From an uncultured Verrucomicrobiae bacterium (lineage in GTDB: Bacteria > Verrucomicrobiota > Verrucomicrobiia > Chthoniobacterales > Chthoniobacteraceae): 64,000 bases of DNA. This document shows, one piece after another, positions 28,263 to 64,000 of the stretch. Position numbers and translations under genes: made by a program. Each line of letters starts with the position of its first letter. The first letter of the stretch is position 1. The notes beneath the pieces are model-generated. The model did no database searches. It was given only the letters and a program-made list of their open reading frames with translations, and had not been told where the DNA came from. The stretch is taken from contig CAWEPO010000004.1 in assembly GCA_963811035.1 (NCBI GenBank), positions 6,331 to 70,330 on the forward strand, given 5' to 3'.

Positions 28263-28277
28263 AGCTATCGGGCAGAA

Positions 28278-29261
28278 TCAGGCGCGCTCGAGCTCGCGGG
28301 CGGTGAGGCGCCGGATGATCTCCTCGAACGGGACGCTATTTTCCCAGCCGAGGATGCGCTTGGCTTTGCCTGGATTGCCGCAGGCGTGGCCGTGCTCCAC
28401 GGTCGTGAGGAGTCCGGAATCGTATTCCACCCAGTCCCCCCAATCGAGGCCGACATAGCTAAAGGCGACTTCGAGAATTTCCTTCACGGAATGGACGCGG
28501 CCGGTGGCGAGGATGAAATCGTCCACGGGATCGGCCTGCAGCATCATCCACATGCCGCGCACGTAATCCGGCGCCCAGCCCCAGTCGCGTTTGCCTTCGA
28601 TGTTGCCGAGCTTCACTTTTTCCCGGGCGCCTTTTTTGATGCGGGCGGCGGCGCGCGCGATCTTCATGGTGACGAAGCCTTCGCTGCGGCGCTCGGACTC
28701 GTGGTTATAGAGAATGGCGGAGCAGGTTTGCAGCCCGTAGGCGATGCGGTAGATGCGGCACATCTGGTGTGAGAAGGCCTTGGCCGCGCCGTACGGCGTG
28801 GTGGGATTGATGGGCGTGGCTTCATCCTGCGGCGAATGCACCGGCGACCCGAAAATTTCGCTGCTGGCGGCGTAGAGAAATTTTGGCGGATCCGGCAAAT
28901 CGCGGATGATCTCGAGCAGGCGCAGGGTGCCCATGCCGATGGAATCGACGGTGGTCTCGGGAAGCTCGAGCGAGAGGCGCGGGCTGGATTGGCCGGCGAG
29001 GTGATACATCTCGTGCGGCTGCGCCTTGGCGATCAGGCGGCGCAGGTGCGTGGCATCCTCGAAGGCGCCGGTGTGGAGGAAGAGGCGGCGATCGAGCAGC
29101 TCGGGATTTGAAGCGAGGTGCCGGATATTGCCTTCATGCAGCGACGAAGGCCGATGCACGAGGCCATGCACGATGTACCCTTTTTCGAGCAGGAGCTCGC
29201 AAAGGTAGGAGCCATCCTGACCGGTGACGCCGGTGATGAAAGCGCGCGGGGCGTCAGACAT
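28278..29261 (-). CDS. gmd: GDP-mannose 4,6-dehydratase
   Basis: AFITGVTGQDGSYLCELLLEKGYIVHGL...PYGAAKAFSHQMCRIYRIAYGLQ...ILYNHESERRSEGFVTMKI...LGNIEGKRDWGWAPDYVRGMWMMLQ. These are the hallmark Gmd SDR motifs. Confidence 0.92.
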   Translation of the reverse strand: MSDAPRAFITGVTGQDGSYLCELLLEKGYIVHGLVHRPSSLHEGNIRHLASNPELLDRRLFLHTGAFEDATHLRRLIAKAQPHEMYHLAGQSSPRLSLELPETTVDSIGMGTLRLLEIIRDLPDPPKFLYAASSEIFGSPVHSPQDEATPINPTTPYGAAKAFSHQMCRIYRIAYGLQTCSAILYNHESERRSEGFVTMKIARAAARIKKGAREKVKLGNIEGKRDWGWAPDYVRGMWMMLQADPVDDFILATGRVHSVKEILEVAFSYVGLDWGDWVEYDSGLLTTVEHGHACGNPGKAKRILGWENSVPFEEIIRRLTARELERA

Positions 29262-29525: not shown

Positions 29526-32500
29526 TCAGCTCTTGCGGCGGCGGCGGAAGGCGCCGAGGAGGAGGGCGCCGGTGGCGAGGAGGGCGGTGGAGGCGGGCTC
29601 GGGGACGGCGGCGAGCGGGAGGCCGCCGGTGTAGCTGTCGCCGAATTGGGCCTGGCGGGAGCCGAGGAGCTCGGGCGAGAGCGGGGCGCCGGTCTGGAAG
29701 GCGTAGGCGGTGTCGATCAGCGAGTAGTCCATGCCGTCGATCGCGTTGTCGTAGTTGAAGTCGCCGTTGAGCCAGTTGATCGCGGGATCGTTGAGCGGGT
29801 CGGTGTCGTGGAGCAGGTTGTAGGCGCTGTCGATGCGGGTGTAGTCCGCGCCGGTGACGGTGCCGTCGAGGTTGGTGTCGCCGTAGTAGGTGTAGCGGAC
29901 GAGGATCGAGTTCAGGCCCGGATTGCGGCCCCCCATGAACGGGTTGCTGCCGTCGTAAATGGCCGTGCCGCCGAGGTTGTTGTTCAGGATGCCGATGGCG
30001 GTGATGTACTGCGCATCGGACGCGGCGGCGGAGCTCCGGAGGCCGGGGCCGTCCCAGAGGCCGGTGTTGTAGGCGCTGGTGATCGAGGCATCGAGCGAGG
30101 CGAAGACGCTGCCGCCGCCGTCAACGACGAGGGCGTTGTTGGTGAGGTCGAGGGTCGCCGCGGAGTCGAGGGTGAGGGCGCCGGTGCTGAGGACTTTGTT
30201 GCCGCCGGCGGTGATGGTGACATTGGCGCCCGCGGCGACGCTGAGCGAGAGGAGGCGGTGGTTCGGGTTGGCGGCGGTGGTGTCCCCGGCCCCGAAGTTG
30301 ACCGTGCCGGCGGCGACGCTGGCGTTGAGCGTGTTCGTGCCGGTGGCGCCGGTGAGGGTGAGCGCGCCGGCGCCGGTCTTGGTGAGCGTGCCGCTCGCGG
30401 AGGCGGCGATGGGGCCGGCGATGCTGAGGGTGACGCCGCTGTTGGTCTCGATCCCGCCGCCGAGGGTGGTGACGGTGACGCCGCGATTGGCGCTGAGCCC
30501 GAAGGTGGCCGTGGCGCGGAGTTTGCCGCTGTTGAGCGTGAGGCTCGTGGCGGTGGGCGAGGCCGGCGTGGCGCCGAGGTTCGCTTCGATCGAAGCGCGG
30601 ACTTCGCCGCCATCGATGGAGGTGAGGCCGGTGTAAGTGTTCGTGCCGCTGAGGACCAGCGCGCCGGGGCCGGTCTTGGTGACGTTGCCGCCGCTGACCA
30701 CGCCGGACGCGGTGAGGACGTTCGCGCCCGTCACGTCAAAGGTGCCGGTGCCGGTGATCGCGATGGTGCGGTTCGCGCCGAGATCGACGGCGGCGCCGGT
30801 GTTGCGCAGCGTGGCGTCGGTGATCGCGATGGTGTTGGTGGCCGAGCCGTCGCCGAGATTGTTGCTGGCGCCGATGCTGACGAGGCCCGCGCCGATGGTG
30901 GTGGCGCCGCTGTAGGTGTTTGCGCCGCTGAGGACCGCCGTGCCGCTGCCGGCCTTGGTGAAGGCGCCGCCGCTGATCACGCCGGGGAGGGTGAGGACAT
31001 TCGCGCCGGTCGATTCGATGGTGCCGGTGCCGGTGATCGCGATGGTGCGGTTCGCGCCGAGATCGACGGCGGCGCCGGTGTTGCGCAGCGTGGCGTTGGT
31101 GATGGCGAGCGTGTTGGTGGCCGAGGCGTTGCCGAGGTTGTTGCTCGCGCCGATGCTCACCACGCCGCCGGTGATGATGGTCGCGCCGCTGTAAGTGTTC
31201 GGGCCGCTGAGCACCAGGGTGCCGCCGCCGGTCTTGGAGAGCGCCTTCGCGCCGCCGACCGCGCCGGAGAGCGTGAGGCCGTGCGTATTGGCGACGGAGA
31301 CGGTGGTGTCGCTCGCCATCTGCACCGGCGCGCTGATCGTGTGATTGCCGGCGGTGTTGGTGATCGTCGCGGCGCTTGCGCCGTTGTCGAGGGTGAGCGT
31401 GCCGCCGCTGCCCTGCGCGAGGGTGAAGGTGTTGGCGGCGTTGTTGAAGGTGACCGCGCTGACCACCGGGCTGACGCCATTGAGGGAGACCACGGTGTTG
31501 CTGGTGATGCCGCTCGAGAAGAGCGCGGTGTCGCCCGCGATGCCGGCGAGGCCGGGGGTGCCGGCGAGCACGGAGGAGAGCGTGTCTTTCCAGTTGCTGT
31601 GGTTGTCCCAGTTCGCGCTGCCCGTGTTGTTCCACTGGGCCTTGCCGGAGTAAACATCGGCGCTGTAGGCGATGCTCACCGGCGCGTAGGCGCTCTCGTT
31701 GAGCAGGCCGGCGCCGCCATTTTCCAGCGTGGTGACGCCGACGGTGATCGCGCCGCTGATCGGGCCGGGCGTGCTGAACGCGCCGCTGAAGTTGCGGGTG
31801 CCGGTCTGCGGCGACGCGCTGCCATCGAGATCGGTGGCGCTGCCGGTGACGGTGATGCCGTTGGAGGTGGAGCCGGTCGCGGCGACGCGCGTGCTGGTGG
31901 TGGCCGCGACGAGGCCGGTGCTGCTGAAGGCGTTCGTGCTGCCGCTCACCGAGGCGCCCTGGTGGACGAGGCCGATGCTGGTCGTGGCGGGATTGGTGAT
32001 GGTGCGGGCGTTCACCGCGGTGCCGCTGAAGGTGACGCTGGCGGCATTGGTGACCGCGCCGGCGAGCTCGTCGGTGGCGTTCAGATTGAAGGTGCCGCCG
32101 ATCGCGTTGCCGGCCGTGCCGGTGACGGTGCCGCCGATCGCGCGGGTGATGTTGTTGCTCGCGGCGCTGCCGTCGATGGAGGTCGGGCCACCGCTGAGGG
32201 TGAGCCCGTTGATCGCGCTGCCGCTGTAGGCGAGGAGCGTGGAATCGGTGGTGACGTTGTGCAGGCCGGCAGTGGTGATCACCGCGTTCTGCGCGGAGAG
32301 CGCATTGCCGATCACGAGGCGGCCGAAGGCGAGCGTGCCCGGGTTCGTGAACGCGCGCTGGTTCACACCGTTCACGGTGTAAGCGACGCTGGCGGCGTTG
32401 GTGACGGCGCCGGCGAGCTCATCGGTGGCGTTCAGGTTGAAGGTGCCGGTGAGCGTGCCGGCGGTGCCGGTGAGCGTGCCATTGATGTTGCGGACGATGT

Positions 32501-35500
32501 TGTCGCTCGAGTTCGTGCCCAGGATCTGGTTCGGTCCGCCGCTGAGCGTGAGGCCATTGATGGCGCTGCCGGCGTAAGCGGCGAGCGTCGAATCGGTGGT
32601 GGTGGCGTGCAGGCCGCTCGTGGTGATCGTGGCGTTCTGGTTGATCGTGGCGCCGAGGAGCTTGCGGCCGAGGTCGACCGTGCCGGGGCCGGTGAAGAGG
32701 CGCTGCGCGACCTGGTTCACCGTGAAGCTGACGGCGGCGGCGTTGGTGACCGCGCCGGCGAGCTCATCGGTGGCGTTCAGGTTGAACGTCCCATTGATCA
32801 CGCCGGTGCCGCTGAAGGTGCCGCTGATCGTGCGGCTGATGTTATCGCTCGCGTTCGTGCCATTGATGAAGCTCGGGCCGCCGGTGAGGGTGAGGCCGTT
32901 GATCGTGCTGCCGGCGTAAGCGAGGAGCGTCGAATCGGTGGTGGTGAGGTGCAGCCCGCTGGTCGTGATGATGACGTTCTGGCTGAGCGTGGCGCCATTG
33001 AGCACGCGGCCGAAATCGACGGTGGCCGGGTTGGTGAAGAGGCGCTGATTGACGCCGTTCACCGTGTAGCTGACCGACGCGGCATTCGTGAGGACGCCCG
33101 CGATTTCATCGGTCTCGTTCAAATTGAACGTGCCGGTGAGGATGCCCGCGGTGCCGGTGAGATTGCCGCTGACGGTGCGGTTGATGTTGTCGCTGGCATT
33201 GGCGCCGTTGATCACGGACGGGCCGCCGGTGAGCGTGAGCCCATTGATCGCGCTGCCGCTGTACGCGGCCAGCGTGCTGTCGCTGGTGGTGGCGTGCAGG
33301 CCGGAGGTGGTGATGGTGGCGCCCTGGCTGAGCGCGCTGCCGAGCAGGACGCGGCCGAAATCGATCTGGCCGGGGCTGGTGAAGGCGCGCTTGTTGATCG
33401 CGGTGCCGGTGTACGAGACGCTCGCGGCATTCGTGACTGCGCCGGCGAGCTCATCGGTCGCGTTCAGATTGAAGGTGCCGCTGACGGTGCTGCCCGCCGT
33501 GCCGGTGAGCGTGCCGTTGATGTTGCGGACGATGTTATCGCTGGCGTTGGCGCCGAGGATCGAGGTGGGGCCGCCGCTCAGGGTGAGGCCATTGCTCGTC
33601 CCGCCCGCGTAAGCGGCCAGCGTGGAATCCGTGGTGGTGGCGTGCAGGCCCGAGGTGGTGATCGTGGCGTTCTGATTGACCGCGAAGCCGATCAGGCGGC
33701 GGCCAAGATCGATCGTGGCCGGGCTGGTGAAGAGCCGCTGGTTCACGCCGTTGACCGTGTAGCTGATGCTCGCGGCATTCGTGACCGAGCCGGCCAGCTC
33801 ATCGGTGGCGTTCATATTGAACGTGCCGGTGAGCGTGCCCGCCGTGCCGGCGAGCGTGCCGGTGATGGTGCGGCCAATGTTATTCGAGGCGATGCTGCCA
33901 TCGACGAAGTTCGGCCCGCCGCTGAGCGTGAGGCCGTTGATCGCGCTGCCGCCGTAGGCGAGCAGCGTCGAATCGGTGGTATCGGCGTGCAGGCCCGAAG
34001 TGGTGATCGTGGCCGCCTGATTGAACGTAGTGCCGAGGAGCACGCGGCCGAGATCGACCGTGGCCGGGCTGCCGAAGGTGCGCTGGTTCACCTGGTTCAC
34101 CGTGAACTGCACCGCCGCCGCGTTCGTGACCGCGCCAGCCAGCTCATCGGTGGCATTCAGGTTGAACGTGCCATTGATGACGCCGGTGCCGCTGAAGGTG
34201 CCGCTGATCGTGCGGTTGATCGTGTCGTTCGCATTCGTGCCGAGGATCGCATCCGGCCCGCCGGTGAGCGTAAGACCGTTGATCGCGCTGCCGCCGTAGG
34301 CCAGCAGCGTGGAATCGGTGGTGGTGGCGTGCAGCCCGCTGGTGGTGATCATCACCCCCTGGCTGAGCACGGCGCCATTGAGCACCCGGCCGAAATTGAC
34401 GATGCCGGGATTCGTGAAGAGACGCTGGTTCACGCCATTCGCCGTGAAGCTCACGCTGGCGGCGTTGGAAACCGCACCCGCAAGCTCGTCGGTGGCGTTG
34501 AGATTGAACGTGCCGGAGAGCGTGCCCGCGGTGCCGGCCAGCGTGCCGGTGATGCTGCGGAGGATGTTGTCGCTGGCGTTCGTGCCGAGGATGGCGTCAG
34601 GCCCGCCGCTGAGCGTAAGGCCATTGATCGCGCCGCCCGCATAGGCCGCGAGCGTGGAATCGGTGGTGACCGCGTGCAGGCCGGCGGTGGTGATCGTCGC
34701 GGAATGATTGAACGTGGTGCCGAGCAGGACGCGGCCGAGATCCACGGTGCCGGGACTGCCAAAGAGTCGCTGGTTGAGCGCGTCGACGGTGTAGCTGACG
34801 CTCGCGGCATTCGTGACCCCGCCGGCAAGCTCATCCGTGGCGTTCAGGTTGAACGTGCCGGTGAGCGTGCCCGCGGTGCCGCTGAGGGTGCCGCTGATCG
34901 CGCGGACGATGTTGTCGCTGGAATTGCTGCCGTCGATAAACGCATCCGCGCCGGTAAGGGTAAGCCCGTTGATCGCGCTGCCGCCGTAAGCGAGGAGCGT
35001 GGAATCGGTGGTGACGTTGTGCAGGCCGGCCGTGGTGATGGTGGCGTTTTGGCTGAGCGTGCTGCCGAGGAGGCGGCGACCGAGGCTGACCGTGCCGGGG
35101 CTGGTGAAGGTGCGCTGATTGACCGGGTTGCCGGTGACATTGACCGTGAGCGTGCCAAGGCTGCCGGCGCCGAGGATGCTGGCGTCATCGGCGAAGGTGA
35201 AGGTCTGGCCGCCTGTAAACACGCCCGCGGTGGCGGTGTTGAGGCTGTAGTTGTAGAGCGAGCCGTCGCCGCTGGCCACGACGCCGGTGCTGTTTGCGCC
35301 GCCGCCGGTGAAGCCGGAGGGCAGAGCGCCCGCGGTCCAGGTGATGCCGCCGGTGTTCGCCACCGGAGTGCCGAAGGTGTCGTTGCTGATGGTGACGCCC
35401 TGCGCGGCGGGCGAGGAGCCGACGAGCACGCGGCCGAAGTCGAGCGTGGAGGTGGGCAGCTTGGTGGGCGTGCCGTGGCGGAAGACGTTCACGGTGCCGT

Positions 35501-59500: not shown

Positions 59501-62500
59501 CCGACTGCCCCTGCGAAATGCGAACCTGGTTACCGATGATCAGACCGCCGGGATTCATTGCGTAGATGCCGGCATTGCCGAGATCGAGCCTTCCCGTGCT
59601 GATGGCGGTTCCCGAAGTGCCGGTGGTCGCTCCGGCGATGCCGAGAAAGCCGCCGCCGATTACGGTGGTCACGCCGGTGTACGTATTCGCGCCCGAAAGT
59701 ATCCAGGTGCCGCCACCGCTTCCCTTGGTGACACTCAACGCGCCGCCGTTATCGGCGAGCACGGCCTTCATTTCGTTGGCGTCATTGCTGAAGCCATCCA
59801 GGGTCAGCGTCTTCGCGCCCGCCGTCGAGTTGACGAAGTTATTGATGACGAGCGCGCCGCTGCCGCTGGAGTCGATCGTAGAGGAGGCCGCCAGGTTGAT
59901 CTGCCGCTGCACATTCTCGCCCGAGCCGACATAAAAAAGATTGCCAGCGTTCAGCGTCAAAATGCCCGCGCCGTTGCCGAATGCGCTGGCCGCGGTCGAA
60001 CCGCCGCCGATTGAGCTCACCACGACGTTGCCCGCCGAGAGAGTCGTATTGCCCGCGTAGGTATTTGCGCCGGTGAGATAAAGCAGACCGCCGCCGGTTT
60101 TCGTAAGCCCGCTGCCCGTGCTGCCGCTGATCACGCCCGAGACCGTCGCGAAATCCATGAAGGTGCTGGTATTGTCATCCACCTGGATGGTGCGAACGGC
60201 GCCGTTCAAGTTGATCGGGTTCACCACTTCGGTATCGAAGAGCGCCGTCGTCGAGTTCAGGATCAAGGCGCCGGTGCCATTGCCGATGCCGCCGCTGCCC
60301 CAGGTCTGTGTCGCGCCAGCGCCGCCAAAATTCACCGTCAGCTTGGAATTGGCAGCGGCAAAGCCACCCGCGGTATTGGCCACCCAGCCCACCTGCCCCG
60401 CGCCAGTGCCAATGGGACGGATGAAGGTCCCGGAAGTCTCCAGAATGCCGCCGCCCAAGACCAGGTTGCTGGCCGAGGAGAGGCCCAGCCCATCGACCGC
60501 GCGCAAGGTGCCGGCCGTGATCGTGGTGGGGCCGGAATAGGTATTCGCGGTCGCAGGATTCAAGATCCACAAACCGCCGGTCAATTTAGTGACCGACAGC
60601 GCTTCGTTCGCGTTGGGATTGTTCTTGAGGCGGATGCGCAGCTCGTTGTCGCCGGCCGAATCGCCATCCAGCGTCAGCGTGCGGATGCCGGCCCCGCTGA
60701 AGACCACATCGGCCGTGTTGTTGAAGATGAGGGCCGCGCTGTTGGCGGCGCGGACGGCGATATTGTTGCCGTAGCTGCCAAAGGAGGCGATGCTCGCGTT
60801 GCCAGCCAGCGTGAAGAGTCGATCGATGCTGACCGAAGGCGTCTGCGTGGCGACCACCGCGCCGCCGGCATTGGTGCCGACATAACGGAGCGCGCCGCCA
60901 TTGAAGACGAGGCTCGCGGCATTCGTCGCATCGCTGGTGGCATCCCCGCGTCCGATGCCGCTGGCCGTCCCGATGTTAGCCAGCGTGGTCACATCGAGGT
61001 TCCCCGCGTTGAGCTGAGTAACCCCCGAGTAGGTGTGAGAGCCGGAGAAGGCGATCGTCCCCGTGCCGGCTTTAGTCAGCCCGATTTTCGCAGTCGCGCC
61101 ATCCTGGATCAAGCCGGCGAAATGACCCGCGCCGGTCGCGCCGCCGATCTGCAGGGTAGCAGTGCCCGAAGCTGCTGAGTTGGTGATCAGGCCAGGGCCG
61201 GTCAGCGCATTAATTTGATTGGTCCCCGTCAGCGAAACACCGTTCATATCGAACGTCGTGCCCTGACGCAGGATGAGATTCGCGGAAGCGCCCAAGGTGC
61301 CGGTGCCAGCCAACTGCAAGGTGCCGGCGTTGACCGTCGTCGTCCCGGTGTAGGCGTTCGCTCCGCTCACGATGAGGGTGCCGGTGCCGGATTTAGTCAG
61401 CGAACCCGCGCCGCCGCTCATCACCGCGCTGACGGTCAGCGCGTTGGCCGGCGTGGTGCCATTGATGGTAATGATCACTTCGGACGCCGAGGCGCCCAAC
61501 GTGTTCGCAGCGGTGCCATTGTTTTGAATGGTTGCAGCGCCAGTGGAGTTATCGAATAGGATGCCGCCGCTCGTGATCGTCTGGATGCCGGCCAGCGTGA
61601 TGGTCTGCGCATTCGCCATCTTGAGCGAATTGATCGACTGCGCGGCGAGGTTGGCGCCGGGGGTCGCGGTGCTCTGATAGTTGGTGGTCGCCACGCCGCC
61701 AGTGGTCGGCAACGTCGCCTGCCCGGTCAGTGCGGTCGCCGTGCCGCCCGCACCGACACTCGCGGCGAAATCCGTGCCGGCAGAGCCGAAGGTGGCGTAG
61801 CCGCCGAGGATGCCGTTGGCGCCGGCGGCGGCGGTAAAGGTGATGGAAGTGCCGGCGCCAGGATTCAAGTTGAGGGCCGCGCCCGCGCCGCGAGTGCCGA
61901 GCGAGGCGAAGTTCAGCGTCGGCACGCCGCTATTGGCAGTGACCTTCACGGAACCAGCCCCGGCAGTCGGGGTCAACGCCCCTACCTGCTCGATGAGCGT
62001 GGCACCCGCCGCGGAACCTTGATACTCGAAGATACCGCCCGCCGCGCCGTCGTTGTTCACCGGGTCCGTCGCAAAGGTGATCGCCGCCGTGTTGCCGATC
62101 AGGTTGGAGCCGTTGCCGGAATTGGCGGTGGGGCGGAACTGCATCGTGCCGCCAGCGACGTTGACACCACCAGTGAAACCGGTGCCGATCGCGCCGAAAG
62201 TGATCCCAGCGTTGGCGGCAATCGAAGTGCCGCCGATGTTGGCGCTCAAGGTGATCGTATTGGTCGCCGCATCGATCGCCGTAATGATGGTGCCGTTAGC
62301 GGGACCATTCGTCGGTGTGGCGGAAATCGTCTGGCCCAAAACGAGGCCCGCGACGCTGCTGAGCACCATCTGGTTGAGGTTCGCGGAGCCGGTCGTGACG
62401 GTGATGCCTGAGGAGGCCGCGGCGTAGTTCGCGGCAGTCGGAACATACAGCCAGGTGTTGCTCCCAATCTTCGTCAGAGAAGTCGTTGGGGTGGAGCTAT

Positions 62501-64000
62501 CCTGAATGACGCCGCGGATTTCATTGATCGTGCCGCTGGGGCTGCTGCCACCCAAGACGAACGTTTTCGCACCCGCGCCGGACGCACCGACGTTGCTGGT
62601 GAAGACCAGCGGAGTCGCGCCGGTTTCGTTCGCGAGCAGGATGGCGTTCACGCCGGTCGTGCCCGCGAGGTTCAGCACTTTGGCCGTGGTCTCGCCGGGG
62701 CCGTTATAGCTCAGGGTGCCCGCCACCGTCGTAGCGCCAAGACTCACCATGCCTGCATTGGCGCCAGTCCCGGTTACGGCATTATTGAGCGAACCCATGC
62801 CATTGATCACCAAGGTGCCCGCATTGACGTTCGTTGAGCCTCGGAACGTGGACGCCGTCCCCTCAATCGTCGCCGTGCCGGTGCCGGCTTTCGTGAAGAC
62901 GTGACCGCGGCTGGCGGCATTGATAATGCTGCCCGTTACCCGAATTTCACCCGTGGCAGTGAGGGTGAACGTGCGCAGGCCCGCGTTCTCAGACGACCGC
63001 CAGATGTCCCCCGTAAACGTCGCCAGACCACTGGAGGTATTGGCAATAGTAAGGGCCGCGATCTGCGTGCTGATACCCGCCGGGTTGAACGATGTGAAGC
63101 TGGCCCCGAAACCATTCCGGCCCGCGATAATCAAACCCTCGTTGGCCGCTGCGCCAGGCACGCCCGACAAGGTGCCGAAAGTGACGGTCTGGTTGATCGC
63201 GCTGGAGCCGCCGCTGACCCCGCGATCGACGAAGAGGGTCAGGCTGCCGGTCGTGTTGTCCGTGAGGCTGACATTTTTCCCTGCAAAACTCGCGGGCGCA
63301 TCGGTGCGGATTTCGAAAACACCGGTGCTGCCGCGGATGACACTGGCCGAAGTGCCGATGCCCAATTGCGCGCCATTGGAAAGGCGGATGGTGCCGGAAT
63401 CAGCACGGATATCGCCGATGTACGTGCTGTTATTGTTATTCAGGACCAGCGTGTTATTCAAGCCGCCTCGCGAAGACTTGTTAATGCCGGAGGTGCCGCT
63501 GACGCCGCCGATGAGCGTGCCATCGACGATGATATTGCCGGGACCGCCCGTGATGAAGAAACGCTGATCGTTCGCGGCAAAGAGGCTGCCCGTGCTGCTG
63601 ATCGTCATGTTGCCGGCCGCGGAGCCGATGCGCGCCTCGCCGATGCCGCTGTTGGCGATGAATCGCCCGGTGTACGTGTTGTTGCCGATGTTCAGGAAGG
63701 AGACGCCGACGGTGTTCGGGCCGCGACCGGCGACGTTGATATCCCTAGTGAAGGTGATGCCCGAGGTCCCGCCCTGTACCACCAACATGCCACCGGGGAT
63801 GCCCTGTGTGCCGGCGATGCCATTGATGAAGATCGGGGAGGTGCCGGCGCCCAGTTGCCCCACATTGCTCACGACCAGCGTGCCGGCGTTGATGTTGGTC
63901 TGGCCCGAGTAGCTGTTGGTATTGTTCGTCAGCGTGAGCACGCCGCCGCCATTGAGGCTAAGATTGCCAGTGCCCGTAATCTGCCCGGCGAAGGTGGTGC
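29526..64000 (-). CDS. giant PEP-CTERM-anchored beta-helical repeat protein (autotransporter-associated beta-strand repeat type), more than 11,471 aa, 5' end outside the window
   Basis: A single open frame runs from the TGA at 29526..29528 to the window edge. The listed M at 63941 is an internal GTG, and upstream codons still read ..TTFAGQITGTGNLSLNGGG. There are hundreds of ~30-aa units of the form G.G.L.L.G.N.YTG.T.I..GTL. Embedded PA14-like and Ig-like modules are present. There is no C-terminal beta-barrel, and the protein ends in a PEP-CTERM signal. Confidence 0.9.
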   Translation of the reverse strand, partial: TTFAGQITGTGNLSLNGGGVLTLTNNTNSYSGQTNINAGTLVVSNVGQLGAGTSPIFINGIAGTQGIPGGMLVVQGGTSGITFTRDINVAGRGPNTVGVSFLNIGNNTYTGRFIANSGIGEARIGSAAGNMTISSTGSLFAANDQRFFITGGPGNIIVDGTLIGGVSGTSGINKSSRGGLNNTLVLNNNNSTYIGDIRADSGTIRLSNGAQLGIGTSASVIRGSTGVFEIRTDAPASFAGKNVSLTDNTTGSLTLFVDRGVSGGSSAINQTVTFGTLSGVPGAAANEGLIIAGRNGFGASFTSFNPAGISTQIAALTIANTSSGLATFTGDIWRSSENAGLRTFTLTATGEIRVTGSIINAASRGHVFTKAGTGTATIEGTASTFRGSTNVNAGTLVINGMGSLNNAVTGTGANAGMVSLGATTVAGTLSYNGPGETTAKVLNLAGTTGVNAILLANETGATPLVFTSNVGASGAGAKTFVLGGSSPSGTINEIRGVIQDSSTPTTSLTKIGSNTWLYVPTAANYAAASSGITVTTGSANLNQMVLSSVAGLVLGQTISATPTNGPANGTIITAIDAATNTITLSANIGGTSIAANAGITFGAIGTGFTGGVNVAGGTMQFRPTANSGNGSNLIGNTAAITFATDPVNNDGAAGGIFEYQGSAAGATLIEQVGALTPTAGAGSVKVTANSGVPTLNFASLGTRGAGAALNLNPGAGTSITFTAAAGANGILGGYATFGSAGTDFAASVGAGGTATALTGQATLPTTGGVATTNYQSTATPGANLAAQSINSLKMANAQTITLAGIQTITSGGILFDNSTGAATIQNNGTAANTLGASASEVIITINGTTPANALTVSAVMSGGAGSLTKSGTGTLIVSGANAYTGTTTVNAGTLQLAGTGTLGASANLILRQGTTFDMNGVSLTGTNQINALTGPGLITNSAASGTATLQIGGATGAGHFAGLIQDGATAKIGLTKAGTGTIAFSGSHTYSGVTQLNAGNLDVTTLANIGTASGIGRGDATSDATNAASLVFNGGALRYVGTNAGGAVVATQTPSVSIDRLFTLAGNASIASFGSYGNNIAVRAANSAALIFNNTADVVFSGAGIRTLTLDGDSAGDNELRIRLKNNPNANEALSVTKLTGGLWILNPATANTYSGPTTITAGTLRAVDGLGLSSASNLVLGGGILETSGTFIRPIGTGAGQVGWVANTAGGFAAANSKLTVNFGGAGATQTWGSGGIGNGTGALILNSTTALFDTEVVNPINLNGAVRTIQVDDNTSTFMDFATVSGVISGSTGSGLTKTGGGLLYLTGANTYAGNTTLSAGNVVVSSIGGGSTAASAFGNGAGILTLNAGNLFYVGSGENVQRQINLAASSTIDSSGSGALVINNFVNSTAGAKTLTLDGFSNDANEMKAVLADNGGALSVTKGSGGGTWILSGANTYTGVTTVIGGGFLGIAGATTGTSGTAISTGRLDLGNAGIYAMNPGGLIIGNQVRISQGQSGVFTGTNAITLNGVVDLTTGGNATIVNSIVSPAVLTINGNLNNIDTTNARAFTIAGPGNTVITGSLTNTTGTGAMILALNTSGTVTFSGTQTTANAGTTITQGTLIANSNPLSGTGTLSMLGGVFQANTAFTGGNAISTLSLTGNGTNSANSAFATLTGANSVSVGTLVITASGTNPNQARSFFNNLSGANTLTVTGGVTLMNAGTGIGTLNLAGSGNTIISGAIVNGAAGPAGAGVVNYLGSGTLTLTADNTYTGATVLSGGATTLSGSGRIAGNATASITVNHGASLTLDNTGGNPTPVDRLGNKPLVLNGATFNFIGLGGGTPGSTEGTAGNTLTANSGESSINLTNNGGTTQLNFTTQAINTGGFINYTSNVALGTATNRVIFSTPPVLSPVTGGILARAAVNGTDFATYGANGIAAFSGYNVTNNLIGALSTDTMSITANADIITGRTLNALKLDTATVGSAGGFDSTLTLTSGGIFAVGGSSTLSVPRIALGAEGALHIGSGASLTVSGAFTGTTGLNKNLPGSLTLSGQQFYSGTTTFNKGTTDLTFGNNTLFPGQALTVNNGATLNLNGNVQHTGTLSGGTNPGSGGTINLGAGLLVTNMGGNGTFAGAITGTGGLARVGGSTLTVESPLAYSGPTVMMGGALTLRDSATLLNTSAITLNYANLTIDNNVNLQTNINDRVNDAAPLTLRGGSITFTGRASTFSSESLGALSAAQGANTITVGANGNATGQYATGDLTFASFARTPGATVNFVSGGGTLGAGGANPRIFATSGLANGTNNALGAWAIAGSTDFAGYNVAQGAGAVGTPGFVGYDATFAPGNITNLLAAAATTNLLSGTTTTGMLRIAGAFTNDITFTNAGDILNLQQGGLLRSANNNATSIGTAALRGILTAGGTETSGTRELIVYNASNTSGATVMTINSVISNNGAGNSVQFIKSGAGVLALTAQNLYSGGTIVNQGILELRGTNVNDVVIPAAGGLVINGGVQGTGATVTMFTNQGQIAAGTDVTLNGRATLTLVGTNSLGSLTFNNNGGEANNPTVNVGTALTLTSPSPISATTSNAAGVNTVTGGTLTLSNGANIIDVGAIQAAGFTYNNITPSLTIASIVAGAGANTSLSKTGNGLLLLSGANTFAGGVSVGGTDGGLIVSTVNSNPTTTVGGGTGSAVTAITNGPVGTGSVSMASGTKLMVNNASITLANPVSFAGNPIFDSTGLTGATLTLNGALSVPTGALNIAVLNPALTASLVGPITGLSGATSLTKTGLGNLNINLTGISSTAAITINDSTTTSLFHDGNGDVTPQVVSLGAITLDATVPVLTIGRAGQTVLWNQAVNKQLSPSSFGNLLNGINLTAANGYGLVAPNSVALSTAAPALFTIAGASNSNTVQALSLTGQVTGGPTGAGVVTFTKAGVGTLVLGNNATGAGANSFGGSGSVVDVTLGVLAVGSREALGNVGFIRLNPSAATGSILRVTDNLTLGTSDPRLQFGNATAANIKVLQVSEGKTLTLDNAFDTSIAQADLEIQDLGTVQFGANASNTAWTGALFIRGGVVKLDASSHGGALGTTAGATTISAGVAGANAALTLEGGISLAEPLIFGSQSGFNQAGALRSLAGANSVSSLLTANGVVTYIGADAGTLTLSGGLSSNAASTINFVGAGTINLTTTASGANLALALARPTASNAGALNIGVANPSLTGALTVNRGTLTVGVGGVGSVGGTGAITLGGNGTLAVNDTTTAVPNRLGSTRAITIQGGNFTYTANGGAVSSETLGTLNSAHGASTITLSNPGVTPANATLTFGALTTNVVGGGSVLTFASNETYNATTNRIIFTAGPTLTNSIIPRAVVIDASGTNFATYNGTGATGNIQAFSGYQTAIVSTPNAGLGNVIDNYQITTNAPPTPTTTSTVTFGISGDQVISGLNLRGINALKITGPGTDVTFGATGGNQLAIGTGNILVTGGGTSSLGSAGSVMSFGTTIAATTEGALLVDTGSTLNVNGAFANTANVTQGLGGNLNLNTKQYFNAGANYFTILGGTTTLAGGENTLWQGVQGGTAGQHFSIGFGATLDLNGNSQMVGDLRTPSSNAAIGGGGTITSVAPATFITANAASTWGGRITGGVFYNKTGAANLTFNYDNSYTGGTLINGATLTLQDAGQLSGLGAIDLNYGALALTDAGTIAMADRVNDGASFTLRGGTITLAGRDATNTSETLGDVLLAQGLSHIAPAVAANGTVRSAVLSLGNLTRSDSATLNVNTANGQMGNSSRLVIANGSSLLVNGIIPWAITQGNEFVSYVAPSAGNATGGLAGLNAAGYQGYDGSVLPLTSNPAGNYRLTATTTALPAGGLSINALNLVPGATSAVNFTAATDVLNLTAGTLLKSAAFNTTIGATLDSGRLTAGGAAAGVSDLYLFNFSANTTTINSRIVDNGVGRTRLVYSSLSTGPLVLTNGLNSYSGGTTINGGVTFGTGILDLSVAGADGGVTSAAIPQANTLASSLVVNAGNVRLQAANQIDFDITPILNGQATLSLNGFNQTLAGLTFNNNGGTAPQVTTGAGILTLNGNITASSSNAGTIASISGAGTGGVAVDLNGADRTFTVNPVTVNGNSTVANITPSLNITAPIGGAFAVIKAGDGLLQLGGASIFTGGVNVQTGGLAVGGSTNVTSRNASTGVADPFVNGPIGTGSLTLANGTFLTSSAAANTLNNDYTLGSSLTFRGTNNLTLNGATVLGANTTITVETPQAVLTLNGLIDDGGNTFGLTKEGLGTLLLGSNNSFTGGVTVNAGILTLAGLNAGSTAPVFAGSDATIGSGGMLSLQNNGTGNSGVITYANNIVVNGALSVANLHVGNNGANTANTIEVGSLTLNGGQTLNVSSANNYLLRLVNVAGDTVGGPVPQINPALGTTVVIFGYSGDKPINVGQGSLVFPDLVTIGTTTVLDTPTITLSGSYPLGIQNAVLTNAFLTGTAGYTSGGLNAAFSSLAATPAGVTILNSTVAGIGFSGSGFAANRLNDGVYGNRAEATNASMGTSEAVYNGFLEVTGGGNYTFRAGADDSMVLYIDGNAIITDPATLTTGHALTDLGAVTVNLTPGLHSIVYKGYNGGSTGAMRVLYSGSDTGGSFTTISPTRLYKNTAAPTLANAYAGAAIIDNDYTLAAGTAAAPNTATIDTFGSQFGAVIKETRTLTLDNNSALTVVNGTTGSFGTGFFAAGGSSVIGSGVVINTGNTATQGAGVLNLIGPITQSGTGLVSGPGASNALIKAGSGTLVLGGVYTGPSTFTGDLVIQSGFVQLNSPGALPTGQTTVANNGAGTALATSTTVSGSPTITVTSTAALQKGMLVTGTGIPAGAYIANIVDATTYTLSANATASGAANVTLTHLTGAMLDLNGQTAVTGNITINGAGAAPLAAGSSAALWNSSASAASLANALTLGSSASVGGYGDLTLGVINSAAGLTLTKQGTNTLNLTADNTATLLGPVTISLGTLKLGHAGALGATATSTTIASGAVLDTNGISNSEPFTISGVGRANVPTRNTLGALINTAAGTSTLGGAITLGANTSVGSDWINSVSGGLAGGNLAFGGPVGGAFTLTKVGSNTLTLTAANSYSATTLFQGSIVASGAGTLGNAGTVTLGQGLVSGGLPVNTLTLDNTASGISRLGTRPVTMTGAHLNLIGHATTAVNEALVAEGNILINNAYNVITLTNAGQNIRISTSGTTTNGTLQRANLGTALIRGTNLGSAAPAAGNTNVILGNLPTALFSGTTATTGANIRIIPWVIADPSATGNGTSAAATFATADATAGIRPLNTTTEMSTPAAGATVAAANNNRINAAAVTVSATGATTFTTTTVNSLMFETGGSLGISGNRNLVVDSGGILAKDSAAITGTGFLSATTANNIIIHTNGSSTTLTIDPAIGGPLTPPTAGLTKSGEGTLILNSPTGNSYTGQTRLNMGLVKFGTNAPDNALFYRAAAAPAINAVVATLSADPLVINAGATLDLNGHSQTVSQLVVGSTLPGAGGIVTNTAIGTPVDFHALQTSGLVFSGQIQGNLNLLRSGGSGAATWPLTDNNSYTGTTTLMGGLTQLIDQGRLSGTSGIFLNNAVLQWNDTGLQALASRIASNVPITFDGGAFEVLSRAGTNSLVTLGDISLAGGNALIRQSAGGAANFGVSTIHLGGTFNRSTGSTLTFTSGNGVFGDNPFLTAAAGSLTTNTNGIVGGWLTAITSNGTTANSNADFVTYDVNAGFRPLNLVQQTTSFATSLGASNLRLGANGTIVPVAGNQTINSLTMNGAAVTVAFPTATDTLTVTSGGVIAGTDANARTIGSTAVRGKLTSGGSELFLHSGSANGLIVNSDITGTLNLVMDSMSLTGGQVITLNNANSYVGSAYANGVIVNLGAPPVNATTNFVPSTTANAITGNLIINGGTINGTDSNLIANAAVRLQAANQIADAATVTVRGTSQLDLNGFNDTIANLAFNSQGGSNANQGPLVQTGAGTLTIASGGSISATNLSNVGVVPVLAGNVSLPSTIGINVATVGGTAVNGNGQIGLALNANIFGGATINKTGAGVLQLGGVSTSVTTINVNDGTIVLGPNTGGGSNFANAQVNLTSGAILDLRGQTNTQIGSVVGSGTIKNFSFNTAGTLVTGSDNVANTSFTGTITSDYTSGILNVTKIGTGNWNLGADNSASIVGTLQVANGTVTLDSATARNGFITTILSEGGTLTLDNSTNALSNRLGGTTSIGAATPDRAISMRGGTLNFLGGASSVTEALNTVTNLEGSSQWTLTAGTAPTTISMASVAASSTTNRGSLTLNAGSGQLGGGTAASGRVNVIATTTNVVANIRPDFIGIDSSGVGLVTSDANGFRLLTSADTALGYFNPNTASAVYLGNAAPAIFAATGGVTSNAATTANADVSTAVGMYAGTALNSLTLSSGGGVTSLSGGLAGPLFNAAGAINTLTLSTGTSSAALLAKTGNLGLTGGAISTAGVSALYLHALGDLTSTAYITGAGGASIVKDGPGTLNLNQKSLVATNFFVNEGTVKLGAGANTLLVVPTATTATVQDLIINSGTLDLNGNSQAVARLTNTSGANFAANAGSLVNTSATPATLFTNNPVTTFAGIIGGTGGNNLSLDKSGANAFTLTSASPYTGATNIRGGSLVLQDNGALTGGGAINANFATLSLVNSSLSHIASRTGGSAINLTGGTLSVTPRLEGETVTNIGALTLAGGQNLIAIQAQPGIGGSVNLSGTTLARTAGSGAMLNITTGTGQIGRGTALTAGQSPQLTFSTPPAVTQNLIGGWAIGNGTDFLTYLTTPSASGAVGVGLLGDLGSGFADYTTTITAAGNITSAATANTKATGNFNTNVSGATSLNSFNHTVTTAGNNLTYTLFSDTLTLTTGGFLHTGNVTSAAGQNIDYGRLTSPAAELFLFNNQNTWTINSRITGANKAVFSAGTGGSTIVLTDGTSTLPKAATTNGTTTVTLGSGTGTFDGQSVSGPGIPANTTIVSGGGTTTIVLSNAATTSANDFLTFGSTGATTLAGVTAASGATTLTGVTAAQAATMYIGQPLFGTVAGMPAGATITNIVGTTVTISAATTAALATNQIVIGTPGNNYTGGTVVNNGATLTLTPAGPGQVVVPSAGGLTINGGAVNFGGTANFGLIAPATAVTINGSGSLTFPNYTAVAPATTITNTLASVAFNNNGGTTTPALALGAPAAGQVSKVILSGAAAITAVNDNYATTPAISGTFTSATQFASLEFSNASPVINVTGLSPMGLIISAAITQNAGNTNAVSKTGAGSLVLNSASSNWTTGLALNGGTLILDAASTPSTAGSPLISTSTGPLGIGALSIAANTTLQSGTAVRAIANNVNVNGNFTFGGPLAVNGVTLNGVTNLGGATRTVTVTSPLNISTLGGQIANGGLSKAGDGILRIANAGNIYTGGTTVSAGLLQMNTVANALPLTTALVVGSTGTFDIAGLATTIGSLSGETALLGGLVTNSGAAAALTVGLGNASSTFAGILAQGTNALNLAKIGTGSLNLTNTNTSTGTLAVNQGSVILSAAGQMLFGTDTLNSGGTLSLDNSGTGLNNRLGGATKNVTISGGTLAMNGNGSAAVSETIGTLTISNGGGVIALTGAGGLGTAFAVTTLAAQATGGSAVLSGDNLNLAAGAGNATFTATTANFLAGQGGGVNGATNANGGVTNSIRSDILGANTAGGAPTGFLTKDSVTGGFRPLTTAELATTLATSATTNFGNFAAPQTYTNAAATTTSANSLSLITANGISSNGAGQSIQGGVLQRYNAGAALNSLTLTTGGVFANTSTALNVGSLTTTGNVQYHFHTVGAATVLDLNGFLTGTTGGLTKADPGTLNVNFPAYYTGTTTVNGGTLNLNTGAANTLAIAVSNTAATAQAVAINGGTLDLNGQDQVVAAISNNNALGGTGGTITSTAAANLISSTATGSTFAGSIGGALNFYKAGASTLVLTGANTYTGTTTIQGTGLTLQDSGTLASTTINLNGGALNLVNNGLANNNARIAAGALLNLNGGTIALTGANQANTNTTIGSTGAGVSLLQGLNTVTVTPPAVATNGTAALTIGTITRSSGAAAVFNAAGLGSTLPGAGQIFLTNVPALTGNILGGWATAGATAAASDSWATNAAAQSLAATTVVNTNAVTLTAGNTAQMVVGQPVSGTGIPAGSFITAITSGTAFTISQNATASGAPTVTFTAAGIVPLNSTAYTNITATGLQGAATTATGNYSVQVNSATAVQLATGGNTVNSLQIAPTGTTGATLDLNGGILAVTAGGIMRSSANLANTSITNGALTAGAAGVGGELFFALNNTTNAMTVSAVIANNAGGAVTLVKSGTGNAPLTLSAANLYSGGTVVNSGTVTMAGSVANSVVLPGDLTINNGGTVNTTATANLQMSPTANVTVNGGGTFTLAGLTTASTSYDLNSLTFNNNGGTANPSIVLPGVATGVLRLGAAVPISASSDNIGSVATIGGTGSLNLTNAAPVISVTTNLLSKVAPDLNISGIISAAGGQIEKTGNGVLALSGANTFTTGVKLTNGSLILNNAAALGTVAGTFTIGDATTANTVPLTIMAGSAGLTTNAIPVVVNRDFTFGGTVSTNNLNLAGTVNLGAVARTITVTSPAVTGTLSGALSSTSAGGLIKAGPGALTVSFANTNANFNAAPITVSGGVLKNGVTNALPNSSLLTVNAGAVYDLNGITTTNVGQISQQIAGTGLITNAGTAVATLTVGGIAANDNATAATSTFDGVIANAAQALTLVKVGTGNFTLTGANLYTGATQVVAGTLTIGADNTLPITTALTVGTSNTTLATGGILDATNFSQTVGSLTVASNTNAVTNEIKIGSGKTLTVNGNVTLGSNTSAADITNVNFTGGGTLAQISSGGTFIVGGATGATNADAATANLTGLSALTASLGTTGTFRVGDNNAGGNAGAVGASTLRLPATSTITAGTLGIGDAATQSVTHTLRLGGGVNTLNANTINVGSNSTGPGRSGGTLNFDGATGSLVIRSAADPVNGRADMNVVSSVAATGGSFVGLFDTLGHNADLRLGTLVVAGRTGANTGSATGTFSFDTGTVDVNEITAGNKGSATTGGANAGTLNFQGGTVTVNAVANPVQLGVNASNNGSSSGTLNVAGSTVTIGANGGNSIRLGQATVAAGTANGTINVTGGSLTVAGDIIRGTATGTSTAVLNLNGGTLEMGGNRIGGAVAGSNLTSLTFASGTLRNVAQINSGAAISKTTAGTLILAGTNSYTGQTNVNLGTLLLNGTNNGATGTVVTLAASGSTLGGNGSNAAAVTINSGTFLSPGSVATAGTVGTLTIGAANTTALTVAGSYLADVGAGANNVDLVALTGANANVNLTGGTISFNSISAPDQGKYTVLSFTGTRTGTFTNGTLPANYAVTYFANEVALQHLADQSFARTSAATVNAFVNTGVPLTGTLTNTAPTQSIDLLVGLSSTGSLTVDSFTPANGTAVVVGTPQAVTGTIQTGASLGAQTWAVTNTDLGSVTTAATINGTVNVFRHGTPTKLPTSTLDFGRVLVGSSPAAQGVTISNDTFGTPVANTGGITWTAGALPSGFTGGGANSTGVVASGDGSLYNYSLNTATAGVFTGGQTFTFADDASILGAGSLGTLTVNVTGNPVNQRTFTSPGTVSLGRRLLGSTLSQNATITTAGLHNVTTDSTLLAYGGSAINGLTLTGADAFIDGSNSSDNIVRAISGTLSGTAGTLTGTFNLNATDELAGGVTNAASVSYTVDALNQRLFGSPGTVDLGRVLLGTTFNHSATITTAGLHAVTTDSTLAAYAGGAINGLTLSGGPDAILGTNASDNILRSITGTLAGTAGTLSGTFNLNATDELAGAVSNAASVSFTANGVNQRLFTNPGIVNFGRVLNGAVLSQGVMITTSGLHATTTDSTLLAYGGSAINGLTLTGGPDAILGTNANDTINRTISGTFSGTGVINGTFNLNATDELAGAVTNAAAVQFTVNQVNQRTFGSPATVDLGRVLLGTTFNQAATITTSGLHADTTDSTLLAYGGSAINGLTLSGGPNFVDGSIASNNIGRTITGTLAGTAGTLTGTFNMNATDELAGSVTNAASISYTVNGVNQRLFTSPATIDLGRRLIGFAVNQNATITTSGLHATTTDSTLAAYAGGTSNGLTLSGGPTSILGANASDNIVRNINGTLTGTAGSTVSGTFNLNATDELAGAVTNAASVSYTGTAINKRAFTSPGQIDFGRVLLGSALSQGATITTSGLHATTSDSTLAAYSGSAINGLTLTGGPSVINGANASDNINRTVSGNLTGTAGILTGTFNLNETDEIAGVLTNAASVSYTVNGVNQRLFTNPATVDFGRVLNGATLSQNVIITTSGLHLTTTDSTLLAYAGSTINGLTLTGGPSFINGTNASDNISRTISGTFSGTGVINGTFNLNATDELAGAVTNAAAVSFTVNQVAQRLFTGPGTVDLGRKLLGATINQNATITTSGLHATTTDSTLAAYAGSAINGLTLSGGPNQILGTNSSDNIVRNINGTLTGTAGTLTGTFNLNATDELAGAVTNAASVAYTVNGVNQRAFTNPGTLAFGRLVIGNALSAQNAVITTAGLHNVTTDSTLLAYSGSAINGLTLSGGPTSIDGSAASNNITRAIGGTVTGTAGNAIGGTFNLNATDELAGAVTNAASVTFSGTAVNARTITNPATTSIGLVHQGASVSGSTNAFSSTGLVAATTSTRVAATGSTSNGITVTGSATDLDGSASPQTGTRNFSGAFSTPGPISGAITVGVTTLENGGAGLLNESAYAPVSIAYSADVYSGKAQWNNTGSANWDNHSNWKDTLSSVLAGTPGLAGIAGDTALFSSGITSNTVVSLNGVSPVVSAVTFNNAANTFTLAQGSGGTLTLDNGASAATITNTAGNHTISAPVQMASDTTVSVANTHGLTLSGAVGGAKALSKTGGGTLVLSGPNTYSGATIITGGVVSIGASNNLGNASATNTLAITNATLRNTGAAVDLGANRTIAITGTGTIESTGANVLTLPGVISGGAFTKAGSGTAVLSGANTYSGATTIGAGLVSIGASNNLGDGSATNTIAITDATLRNTGAAVDLGANRTIAITGTGTFDVTGANVLTASGVVSGGNVTKTGPGALVLSGTNTYTGLTSIDGGEVRASIEANLGATPASPTATSLTLNSGKLRATATFGLSANRGVTVTTLGGGIETNSGVTLSIAGPIAASASGTLTKTGAGALTLTGATGTNTLNASVAAGTVNFGAGDTTAANPNHRLLSLSVAAGANVTITAGGNKVLSTGALTLDSAATLDLTNNALVVDGGGSVFASLDASITSAYNTGLWDGPGLRSSAAASDAQYITAIGILNNNLGGTAIYDGSNPFMGGRNPGLNSILVRYTYYGDTNLDGTVTGADYTRIDSAYNLLHDTDPLNDPAINWLNGDFNYDNAIDGMDYSLIDTAYAFQTGAPLSPELLGSRQAQFGDSYTGGLPLAAVPEPASTALLATGALLLGAFRRRRKS
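29529..29612 (-). other. PEP-CTERM sorting signal (C-terminus of the giant protein)
   Basis: LAAVPEPASTALLATGALLLGAFRRRRKS*: a VPEP motif, a hydrophobic span of about 17 aa and an Arg-rich tail. VPEP is encoded at 29595..29606. Confidence 0.85.
29697..29879 (-). other. dockerin-like pair of EF-hand-type Ca-binding loops
   Basis: DTNLDGTVTGADYTRIDSAY ... DFNYDNAIDGMDYSLIDTAYAF. There are two D-x-N/D-x-D-G/N-x-[VI]-x-x-x-D-[Y] loops, each followed by a short helix and spaced about 40 aa apart, as in type I dockerins. Confidence 0.55.
30637..31194 (-). repeat. in-frame tandem duplication, 2 x 279 nt (93 aa), inside the giant gene
   Basis: LSGPNTYSGATIITGGVVSIGASNNLGNASATNTLAITNATLRNTGAAVDLGANRTIAITGTGTIESTGANVLTLPGVISGG versus LSGANTYSGATTIGAGLVSIGASNNLGDGSATNTIAITDATLRNTGAAVDLGANRTIAITGTGTFDVTGANVLTASGVVSGG. 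Nucleotides 30741..30817 and 31020..31096 are identical (77 nt, offset 279). The plus-strand shadow ORFs 30637..30915 and 30916..31194 mirror the duplication. Confidence 0.85.
32013..35120 (-). repeat. nine in-frame tandem repeats of ~345 nt (114-117 aa), Ig-like/beta-sandwich units, inside the giant gene
   Basis: Unit starts (first base of the N/A codon of NQR[LTA]F, NKRAF or AQRLF) fall at 35120, 34775, 34430, 34088, 33743, 33395, 33050, 32708 and 32363. Unit consensus: NQRLFTSPGTVDLGRVLLGT..NQSATITTSGLHATTTDSTLAAYAGSAINGLTLSGGP..ILGTNASDNI.R.I.GTL.GTAGTLTGTFNLNATDELAGAVTNAASVSYTVNGV. A degenerate 10th unit spans 32012 to ~31660, and two divergent units lie upstream at ~35830-35121. Confidence 0.9.
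50136..50640 (-). other. PA14-like carbohydrate-binding domain embedded in the giant protein (about aa 4430-4600 of the windowed ORF)
   Basis: ...GFSGSGFAANRLNDGVYGNRAEATNASMGTSEAVYNGFLEVTGGGNYTFRAGADDSMVLYIDGNAIITDPATLTTGHALTDLGAVTVNLTPGLHSIVYKGYNGGSTGAMRVLYSGSDTGGSFTTISPTRLYK. The core Y.G.l.v...G.YtF....DD...lyidG followed by G.h.i.v.y......a.l.l.w matches my memory of PA14. Confidence 0.7.

Follow-up and report, generated by a model that had tools for sequence, protein, structure and literature searches.

A giant PATR-repeat protein with a PEP-CTERM ending and a probable cell-surface role, encoded in a single reading frame of an uncultured Verrucomicrobiae bacterium

The passengers of type 5a autotransporters (pertactin, Ag43, Hap, IgA1 protease and the ShdA-like adhesins) carry the autotransporter-associated beta-strand repeat (PATR), form a right-handed beta-helix rod, contain little Cys and have an adhesin-type role. 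Scarce Cys and low charge suit such passengers to crossing the envelope as an unfolded chain that folds outside. The same repeat (PF12951, TIGR02601) is also known, combined with the sorting signal TIGR02595, from substrates of the PEP-CTERM/exosortase system in Verrucomicrobium, Akkermansia, Chthoniobacterales and Tepidisphaeraceae. PEP-CTERM proteins carry a signal peptide at their N-terminus and occur only in outer-membrane bacteria that possess exopolysaccharide genes and an exosortase (EpsH); their C-terminal helix is proposed to hold the protein until the PEP motif is cleaved, after which the product would be passed to the surface or the exopolysaccharide layer, possibly in glycosylated form (PMC1569441, PMC4960237). 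Verrucomicrobium has 65 such proteins and Akkermansia 23, nine of which were detected by mass spectrometry (PMC1569441, PMC4960237). Proteins of at least 10,000 amino acids (aa) have moreover been reported as frequent in Verrucomicrobiota and Planctomycetota, and among public proteins 7,478 have 10,624 aa or more (West-Roberts et al. 2023, bioRxiv 10.1101/2023.11.21.568195). Here we describe a gene that shares traits with all three groups, found in a 64,000-nucleotide stretch (the window) of contig CAWEPO010000004.1 from an uncultured Verrucomicrobiae bacterium.

The product of this gene is likely a giant secreted cell-surface protein of the Planctomycetota-Verrucomicrobiota-Chlamydiota (PVC) superphylum, composed of a beta-solenoid rod, a PA14 domain, an immunoglobulin (Ig)-like array, a dockerin-like module and a PEP-CTERM signal, which would be sorted by an exosortase as an adhesin or fibre (Table 1). 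It probably acts as a rod-shaped surface adhesin. With the PEP-CTERM substrates mentioned above it shares the repeat family, the N-terminal module and a Cys-poor, low-charge composition rich in Thr, Gly, Ala and Asn, and its dockerin-like and PEP-CTERM ending matches those of the homologues P0018, P0036, P0041, P0043, P0046, P0050 and P0051. It differs from them in joining a PA14 insert and a ten-copy Ig-like array in one chain and in being 4-10 times longer than the retrievable members (0.65-3.6 thousand amino acids, kaa; the database lists none above ~2.6 kaa). Unlike the type 5a autotransporters, it is devoid of a C-terminal beta-barrel translocator, ends in PEP-CTERM and is ~10 times longer. 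The giants of West-Roberts et al. (2023) resemble it in their PVC origin, their length of more than 10,000 aa, their beta-helix and dockerin-type modules, which are predicted ones in the present protein, and their proposed role in surface or cell adhesion, whereas the antiparallel beta-helices and the SecA-like and enzymatic domains of the Omnitrophota giants (30-85 kaa, linked to predation) described in the same study were not detected in the present protein.

Table 1. Features of the window (positions in the 64,000-nucleotide stretch; residues numbered from the first codon visible in the window)
Feature	Position	Strand	Remarks
Giant ORF, 5'-truncated at window edge	29526..63998	minus	11,490 sense codons (29529-63998) + stop (29526-29528)
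N-terminus-proximal module (aa 2-448)	62655..63995	minus	35-40% identity to P0257, P0258, P0259
Main predicted beta-solenoid body (aa 1-9618)	35145..63998	minus	35 of 39 PATR-like units, spaced 100-1,000 aa
Single PA14 domain (aa ~4440-4605)	50184..50681	minus	putative carbohydrate-binding beta-barrel; PF07691 and PDB 6qdi
Ten tandem 115-aa Ig-like beta-sandwich domains, ASH/PapD type (aa 9619-10767)	31698..35144	minus	hidden Markov model and tandem repeat finder
Four C-terminal PATR modules, 93-aa period (aa 10920-11218)	30345..31241	minus	inside confidently modelled beta-solenoid
Dockerin-like module (aa 11366-11437)	29688..29903	minus	two DxNxDGxxxxxD-type putative Ca-binding loops, GDTNLDGTVTGADY and GDFNYDNAIDGMDY
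Predicted PEP-CTERM sorting signal	29529..29606	minus	VPEP, 16-residue hydrophobic helix, RRRRKS at extreme C-terminus
Antisense shadow ORFs	29304-37136, 38550-42008, 43716-46559, 49119-52199, 52203-56753, 57975-60011	plus	codon-aligned
Glycan-biosynthesis cluster, ~20 co-directional genes	6023..29261	minus	starts 264 nt downstream of giant gene
M48-family peptidase, off left window edge	3-1991	minus	
Three ORFs, 384-473 aa, without Pfam or NCBIfam match	3266-4516, 7616-9037, 11683-12837	minus	in or beside glycan cluster

The gene is at least 34.5 kb long and lies on the minus strand, which an initial annotation made from the sequence alone had not stated. The 11,471 open codons listed there belong to the same frame, counted from the first GTG inside the window (63941), and the 5' end does leave the window, so that the true protein is larger, as had been proposed. 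The visible product has a mass of 1,116 kDa and a pI of 5.1. From the position-specific base frequencies of the gene, ~56 stops would be expected in 11,490 codons and none was observed; the openness of the sense frame is thus not due to chance. All repeat units recognised by hidden Markov models (HMMs) share one frame, between aa 12 and aa 11,218, and the family-specific matches that include the C-terminal signal extend this to the last residue. The giant open reading frame (ORF) is one real, continuous coding gene.

The absence of Cys, previously noticed by eye, was borne out by computation (0 of 11,490 residues), and so was the low content of charged residues, since D, E, K and R together make up 6.1% of the protein; the 21 neighbouring genes used for comparison encode 1.62% Cys and 23% charged residues. 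The commonest residues are T (15.5%), G (15.4%), A (13.3%), L (9.6%), N (9.5%) and S (8.4%). This combination had been called typical of the group. It is indeed a family trait, but is not special to this gene: 120 pooled homologues contain 0.097% Cys, ~40% of them have none, and their charged residues amount to 4-12%. At the pooled rate ~11 Cys would be expected in the giant protein, so that a count of zero lies at the low end. As the homologues are likewise Cys-poor and low in charge, the composition reflects the family and is no separate phenomenon.

The bulk of the chain was analysed by profile searches, by internal comparison and by structure prediction. PF12951 matched every one of four slices with 53-107 bits (cutoff 27) and TIGR02601 did so with 61-120 bits (cutoff 19.85), the former recognising 24 significant stretches and the latter 27. 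An HMM iterated on the protein itself recognised 39 PATR units of ~29 aa each, spaced 93-1,000 aa apart over the whole protein. The statement that such units dominate the sequence was therefore too strong, since they total ~1,080 aa, or 9.4% of the protein, although PATR is the only recurrent named family. Internal similarity extends much further: each 300-aa slice has 28-64 internal matches with 25-40% identity, and 1,020 high-scoring segment pairs (HSPs) were found at E <= 1e-10, compared with 37 in a locally shuffled control. Collinear duplications are apparent, e.g. between aa 3106-4384 and 6089-7413, 6008-6992 and 7376-8385, or 7005-7993 and 8250-9276, the duplicated segments of the solenoid body being 0.7-1.3 kaa long with 30-37% identity. 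A regular super-repeat period was sought, and only the 115-aa array is periodic; the remainder consists of irregular segmental duplications.

An AlphaFold2 model was made of the last 951 aa, for which trimmed homologues had been aligned in 12 rows. Within this slice, residues 281-860 had a predicted local distance difference test score (pLDDT) of 70-90 and showed the regular short-strand pattern of a beta-solenoid. When the solenoid model was compared to the PDB with Foldseek, all 43 neighbours were right-handed beta-helix proteins, all of them weak (E >= 0.37); they include IgA1 protease, Ag43, Hap, IcsA, SepA, Hbp, TibA, phage tailspikes and pectate lyases, type 5a passengers being at the top. 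At E <= 1e-10 the modelled solenoid segment is matched by 74% of aa 1-9618 and by 0% of the Ig array. These are one-step coverages; a transitive paralogy coverage of 97.8% was discarded as over-inclusive, three composition-driven HSPs having drawn in the Ig array. From these models we conclude that the bulk of the chain would form a beta-solenoid rod of the right-handed type, in which degenerate coils are punctuated by PATR units, in agreement with the beta-helical nature proposed earlier.

The last 26 residues up to the stop (VPEPASTALLATGALLLGAFRRRRKS) scored 25.8 bits with TIGR02595 (cutoff 16), and the autotransporter barrel PF03797 had no match in any slice of the protein at E <= 0.01. 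The protein thus appears to end, as the initial annotation had claimed, in a PEP-CTERM signal and not in a translocator barrel, and is not a classical autotransporter. The dockerin-like block that precedes this signal, overlooked previously, is conserved in homologues, with a precomputed PF00404 match in P0018, P0036, P0041 and P0050; some homologues with this block are annotated with PF00404 plus PF07589.

Two further modules were missing from the initial description. One is the PA14 domain, for which a search had been suggested there. PF07691 gave a borderline 24.7 bits (cutoff 24) on an isolated 176-aa segment and 20.5 bits within a long slice, the match spanning only profile positions 33-84. 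PDB 6qdi, a solved PA14-domain protein, matched the segment with E = 0.0019 and the anthrax protective antigen did so more weakly. This region is also the sole interior stretch devoid of paralogues elsewhere in the protein.

The other is the Ig-like array, which at the DNA level is a 345-nt tandem array. Copies 1-9 share ~61-76% mutual identity and copy 10 is more divergent. A first AlphaFold2 run gave pLDDT values below 50 for the Ig domains, where the alignment had few rows, and a dedicated two-domain alignment of 24 copies was used instead. The resulting model of a domain pair has a pLDDT of 93.7 and consists of two beta-sandwiches. Foldseek gave 60 matches in the PDB at E <= 1e-3, headed by ciliary central-apparatus proteins with ASH domains (E = 1.6e-7) and including the HYDIN PapD-like domain (2e6j, target-normalised TM-score 0.62), PapD, FimC and RbmA. 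In contrast, sequence models barely detect the repeat: no Pfam family matches it significantly (PF15780 and PF14874 were tried: ASH, 15.3 bits, E = 0.024; PapD-like, 13.6 bits; cutoff 27 for each), and the NCBIfam choice-of-anchor D model NF012200 reached only 21.4 bits (cutoff 45). The predicted structure therefore strongly suggests a resemblance to ASH/PapD domains, at the level of the fold only. A two-domain profile matched 138 of 1.84 billion representative proteins, and by these sequence comparisons the 115-aa domain is a small uncurated family devoid of a Pfam model. It also occurs in the homologues P0001, P0007, P0009, P0012, P0024, P0027 and P0040.

A protein search with aa 1-600 identified three N-terminal fragments, each aligning uniquely to aa 2-448 through its residues 259-687 (P0257), 131-577 (P0258) or 148-575 (P0259), and all three begin with a signal-peptide-like sequence ending in AxA, followed by (F/L)YW(D/S). 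As these alignments start at residues 131-259 of the fragments, only ~130-260 aa including the signal peptide are probably missing beyond the window, for a predicted full length of ~11.6-11.75 kaa. An exact 50-mer from the window edge had no match among the genome and metagenome contigs searched, a metagenome search with aa 1-1000 returned no relatives, and no fragment with 100% identity was found with aa 1-600.

Related loci in species-representative genomes were found almost exclusively in PVC bacteria (25 of 26 loci, from metagenome-assembled genomes of Verrucomicrobiota, Planctomycetota or Kiritimatiellia), in line with the earlier assignment to a Verrucomicrobiota/Planctomycetota type of surface protein. 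The groups represented are Verrucomicrobiae, Akkermansiaceae, Chthoniobacteraceae, Tepidisphaeraceae, Phycisphaerales and Kiritimatiellia, identity is at most 47%, and the ORFs measure 0.65-3.6 kaa within the DNA fetched. The closest proteins retrieved bear names such as 'autotransporter-associated beta strand', 'fibronectin-binding autotransporter adhesin' or 'T5SS/PEP-CTERM-associated repeat protein'. Some homologues end in a barrel (PF03797) and many in PEP-CTERM, several of them sharing the full dockerin-like and PEP-CTERM ending. The statement that few proteins of this kind are so long holds among the retrieved relatives, but not against the reported frequency of giants of at least 10,000 aa in the two phyla. 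No protein above ~2.6 kaa was returned from the word-indexed database or above 3.2 kaa from the representative library, and the giant protein itself gave no self-match; these databases apparently exclude or cut very long proteins, and length comparisons drawn from them are thus biased.

One metagenomic locus (L002, positions 1-16396; ENA ERZ25039492 contig_4662) contains a collinear homologue with 45-54% identity to aa 9222-10988. It runs through three frames, was called as seven ORFs of 366-2,131 aa, and has an Ig array that is apparently longer. By its sequence, it is probably another giant gene of the same family, broken by indel errors or by decay and pseudogenisation.

The integrity of the frame was also considered at the DNA level. 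The gene contains no long near-identical repeats, its most repetitive part being the 345-nt array, whose copies are 60-84% identical; a repeat of 279 nt with 84% matches also occurs. Collapse of repeats during assembly is thus unlikely, as the initial annotation had supposed in calling this part well assembled, and the source contig measures 1,313,253 bp. The ratio of nonsynonymous to synonymous substitution rates (dN/dS) among the Ig-domain copies ranges from 0.20 to 0.74 with a median of 0.43, possibly an overestimate, as codon bias probably depresses dS. Selection is thus purifying where it was measured, but only moderately so and not strong as had been proposed. The intact frame nevertheless argues for maintenance of the gene over its whole length. 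A 3,154-bp short-read contig from the Logan assembly of run ERR11593400 (L001), corresponding to 26.3-29.55 kb of the window, carries an identical gmd gene and stops within the giant gene, ~25 nt in from its 3' end, which indicates that the same organism was present in this run and that the giant gene was not assembled from the short reads.

The co-directional genes that follow the giant gene encode a GDP-mannose 4,6-dehydratase (gmd), an ABC-2 permease and its ATPase of the Wzm/Wzt type, two WavE proteins, Methyltransf_24, FkbM and NanM-like methyltransferases, and glycosyltransferases (GT) of families GT11 (fucosyltransferases), GT2 and GT4, the last with at least seven members. The gap between the giant gene and this cluster showed neither a promoter-like nor a terminator-like site. 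In its gene content the cluster resembles a polysaccharide or O-antigen locus of the kind that depends on an ABC transporter. Its position fits the association of PEP-CTERM proteins with exopolysaccharide genes, and a direct functional link is not implied by position alone.

A possible course of export and assembly can be outlined. An N-terminal Sec signal beyond the window would export the chain unfolded, and the lack of Cys together with the very low charge fits a chain that stays unfolded and free of disulfides until it is outside the cell. The C-terminal helix and the basic cluster would then retain the protein in the inner membrane until an exosortase of the EpsH/Xrt family, presumably encoded elsewhere in the genome, cuts at the PEP motif and the cleaved protein is handed to the outer surface or the exopolysaccharide layer. 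There it may project as a fibre ~0.2 um long, an estimate that combines the ten Ig domains with ~9,450 beta-solenoid residues, each coil being taken as 22-30 residues and 0.48 nm. Nearest the cell would lie the dockerin-like module and the Ig array, and the PA14 domain and the rod surface might bind carbohydrates or other surfaces. The gene itself may have grown by old segmental duplications, now at 30-37% identity, the Ig array having expanded more recently.

Several points weigh against this interpretation. The signal peptide, as the initial annotation had remarked, is not visible in the window and was deduced from the homologues, and no exosortase or other sorting gene was found in the 64 kb, including the ORFs with no Pfam match. 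The structure models cover two slices with ~950 aa in total, the solenoid model has no significant PDB match (best E = 0.37), and interior blocks such as aa 2650-3620 and aa 3500-4000 have no direct match to the modelled segment. Two of the C-terminal profile scores lie under their cutoffs, that of PF00404 on the dockerin-like module (20.5 bits, cutoff 22.9) and, narrowly, that of PF07589 on the tail (20.0 bits, cutoff 20.7). Adhesion, surface exposure and expression of the protein are inferred.

A structural role different from that of an adhesin was considered, in which the protein would be a matrix scaffold, either a glycoprotein of the exopolysaccharide layer, heavily glycosylated by the glycosyltransferases encoded downstream, or a cellulosome-like scaffold subunit whose dockerin-like module would dock to a cohesin partner. 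Its 24% Ser+Thr, the ~20 glycan genes that follow on its strand after 264 nt with no terminator-like site in between, the conservation of the dockerin-like block and the proposal that PEP-CTERM proteins are glycosylated and built into exopolysaccharide (PMC1569441, PMC4960237) would all fit such a scaffold. However, the cluster resembles a standard ABC-transporter-dependent pathway (gmd, Wzm/Wzt-like, GT11) that works without a protein substrate, there is no excess of N-x-S/T sequons (240 observed, 254 expected), and the dockerin score is under the cutoff; no cohesin was identified, though none was searched for as a partner. We therefore regard a scaffold as unlikely compared with an adhesin or fibre. 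An even more intimate connection, in which the giant protein and the adjacent glycan genes would constitute one functional unit and the rod would be decorated by or covalently joined to that polysaccharide, appears doubtful on present evidence. If it were true, it would represent a type of protein-glycan surface coat that experiments have not yet described, and the rare 115-aa array would be an extensible stalk of variable copy number.

The 34.5-kb frame might alternatively be an assembly artefact made of joined or mis-phased repeats, or a decaying, unexpressed locus kept open by its composition. The codon-aligned antisense ORFs, the longest of which has 2,611 aa, indicate that composition alone can keep frames open, the collinear homologue in L002 is split over three frames, and the short-read contig of the same organism ends just inside the 3' end of the gene. 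Against these stand the complete lack of the ~56 expected stops in the sense frame, the family HMM matches, which between aa 12 and aa 11,490 keep to a single frame, the absence of near-identical long repeats that could cause a collapse, the dN/dS values of the Ig copies and the 1.31-Mb source contig, which together make an artefact or a decaying locus very improbable. Equally remote is the idea that the protein is a passenger of another export route (a two-partner TpsA-like protein, a type 1 substrate or one half of a split autotransporter) with an incidental PEP-CTERM-like tail. It is true that the PF03797 barrel terminates many homologues with these repeats, and that type 5 passengers head the structural neighbours, weak as these are. 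The tail, however, scores above the TIGR02595 cutoff and shows the three PEP-CTERM elements complete at the very C-terminus, an ending that numerous relatives share together with the dockerin-like module. Moreover, searches of the 11,490 aa detected neither a two-partner secretion (TPS) domain nor RTX repeats nor a barrel, and no TpsB, Omp85 or type 1 components are encoded by the immediate neighbours.

The exosortase-sorted adhesin or fibre thus being the likely reading, the repeat family, the PEP-CTERM ending, their combination and the dockerin-like tail were already known from annotation, and neither a new mechanism nor a new kind of system is revealed by the protein. New here are its size for the PATR/PEP-CTERM family, the specific order of its modules and the rare Ig-like domain that has no Pfam model. 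PVC bacteria of the environment and the gut are rich in PEP-CTERM/exosortase substrates, which have hardly been characterised by experiment, and the gene would be a useful test case in that this family can exceed 1.1 MDa in a single intact frame. The order of modules, i.e. a signal peptide expected from the homologues, beta-solenoid rod, PA14, Ig stalk, dockerin-like module and PEP-CTERM, predicts which end would face the cell. Proteins of this size are invisible to routine homology searches, the databases used listing nothing above ~2.6-3.2 kaa.

The third codon position of the giant gene is 62.5% C and 2.1% A, and the strong GC skew over the gene is due to this C-rich, A-poor position. On the opposite strand, ORFs of 679-2,611 aa run exactly in register with the sense codons. 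Their length has the same origin, since wherever a sense codon ends in C the antisense codon starts with G and is never a stop, and a gene caller could mis-annotate these shadow ORFs as genes.

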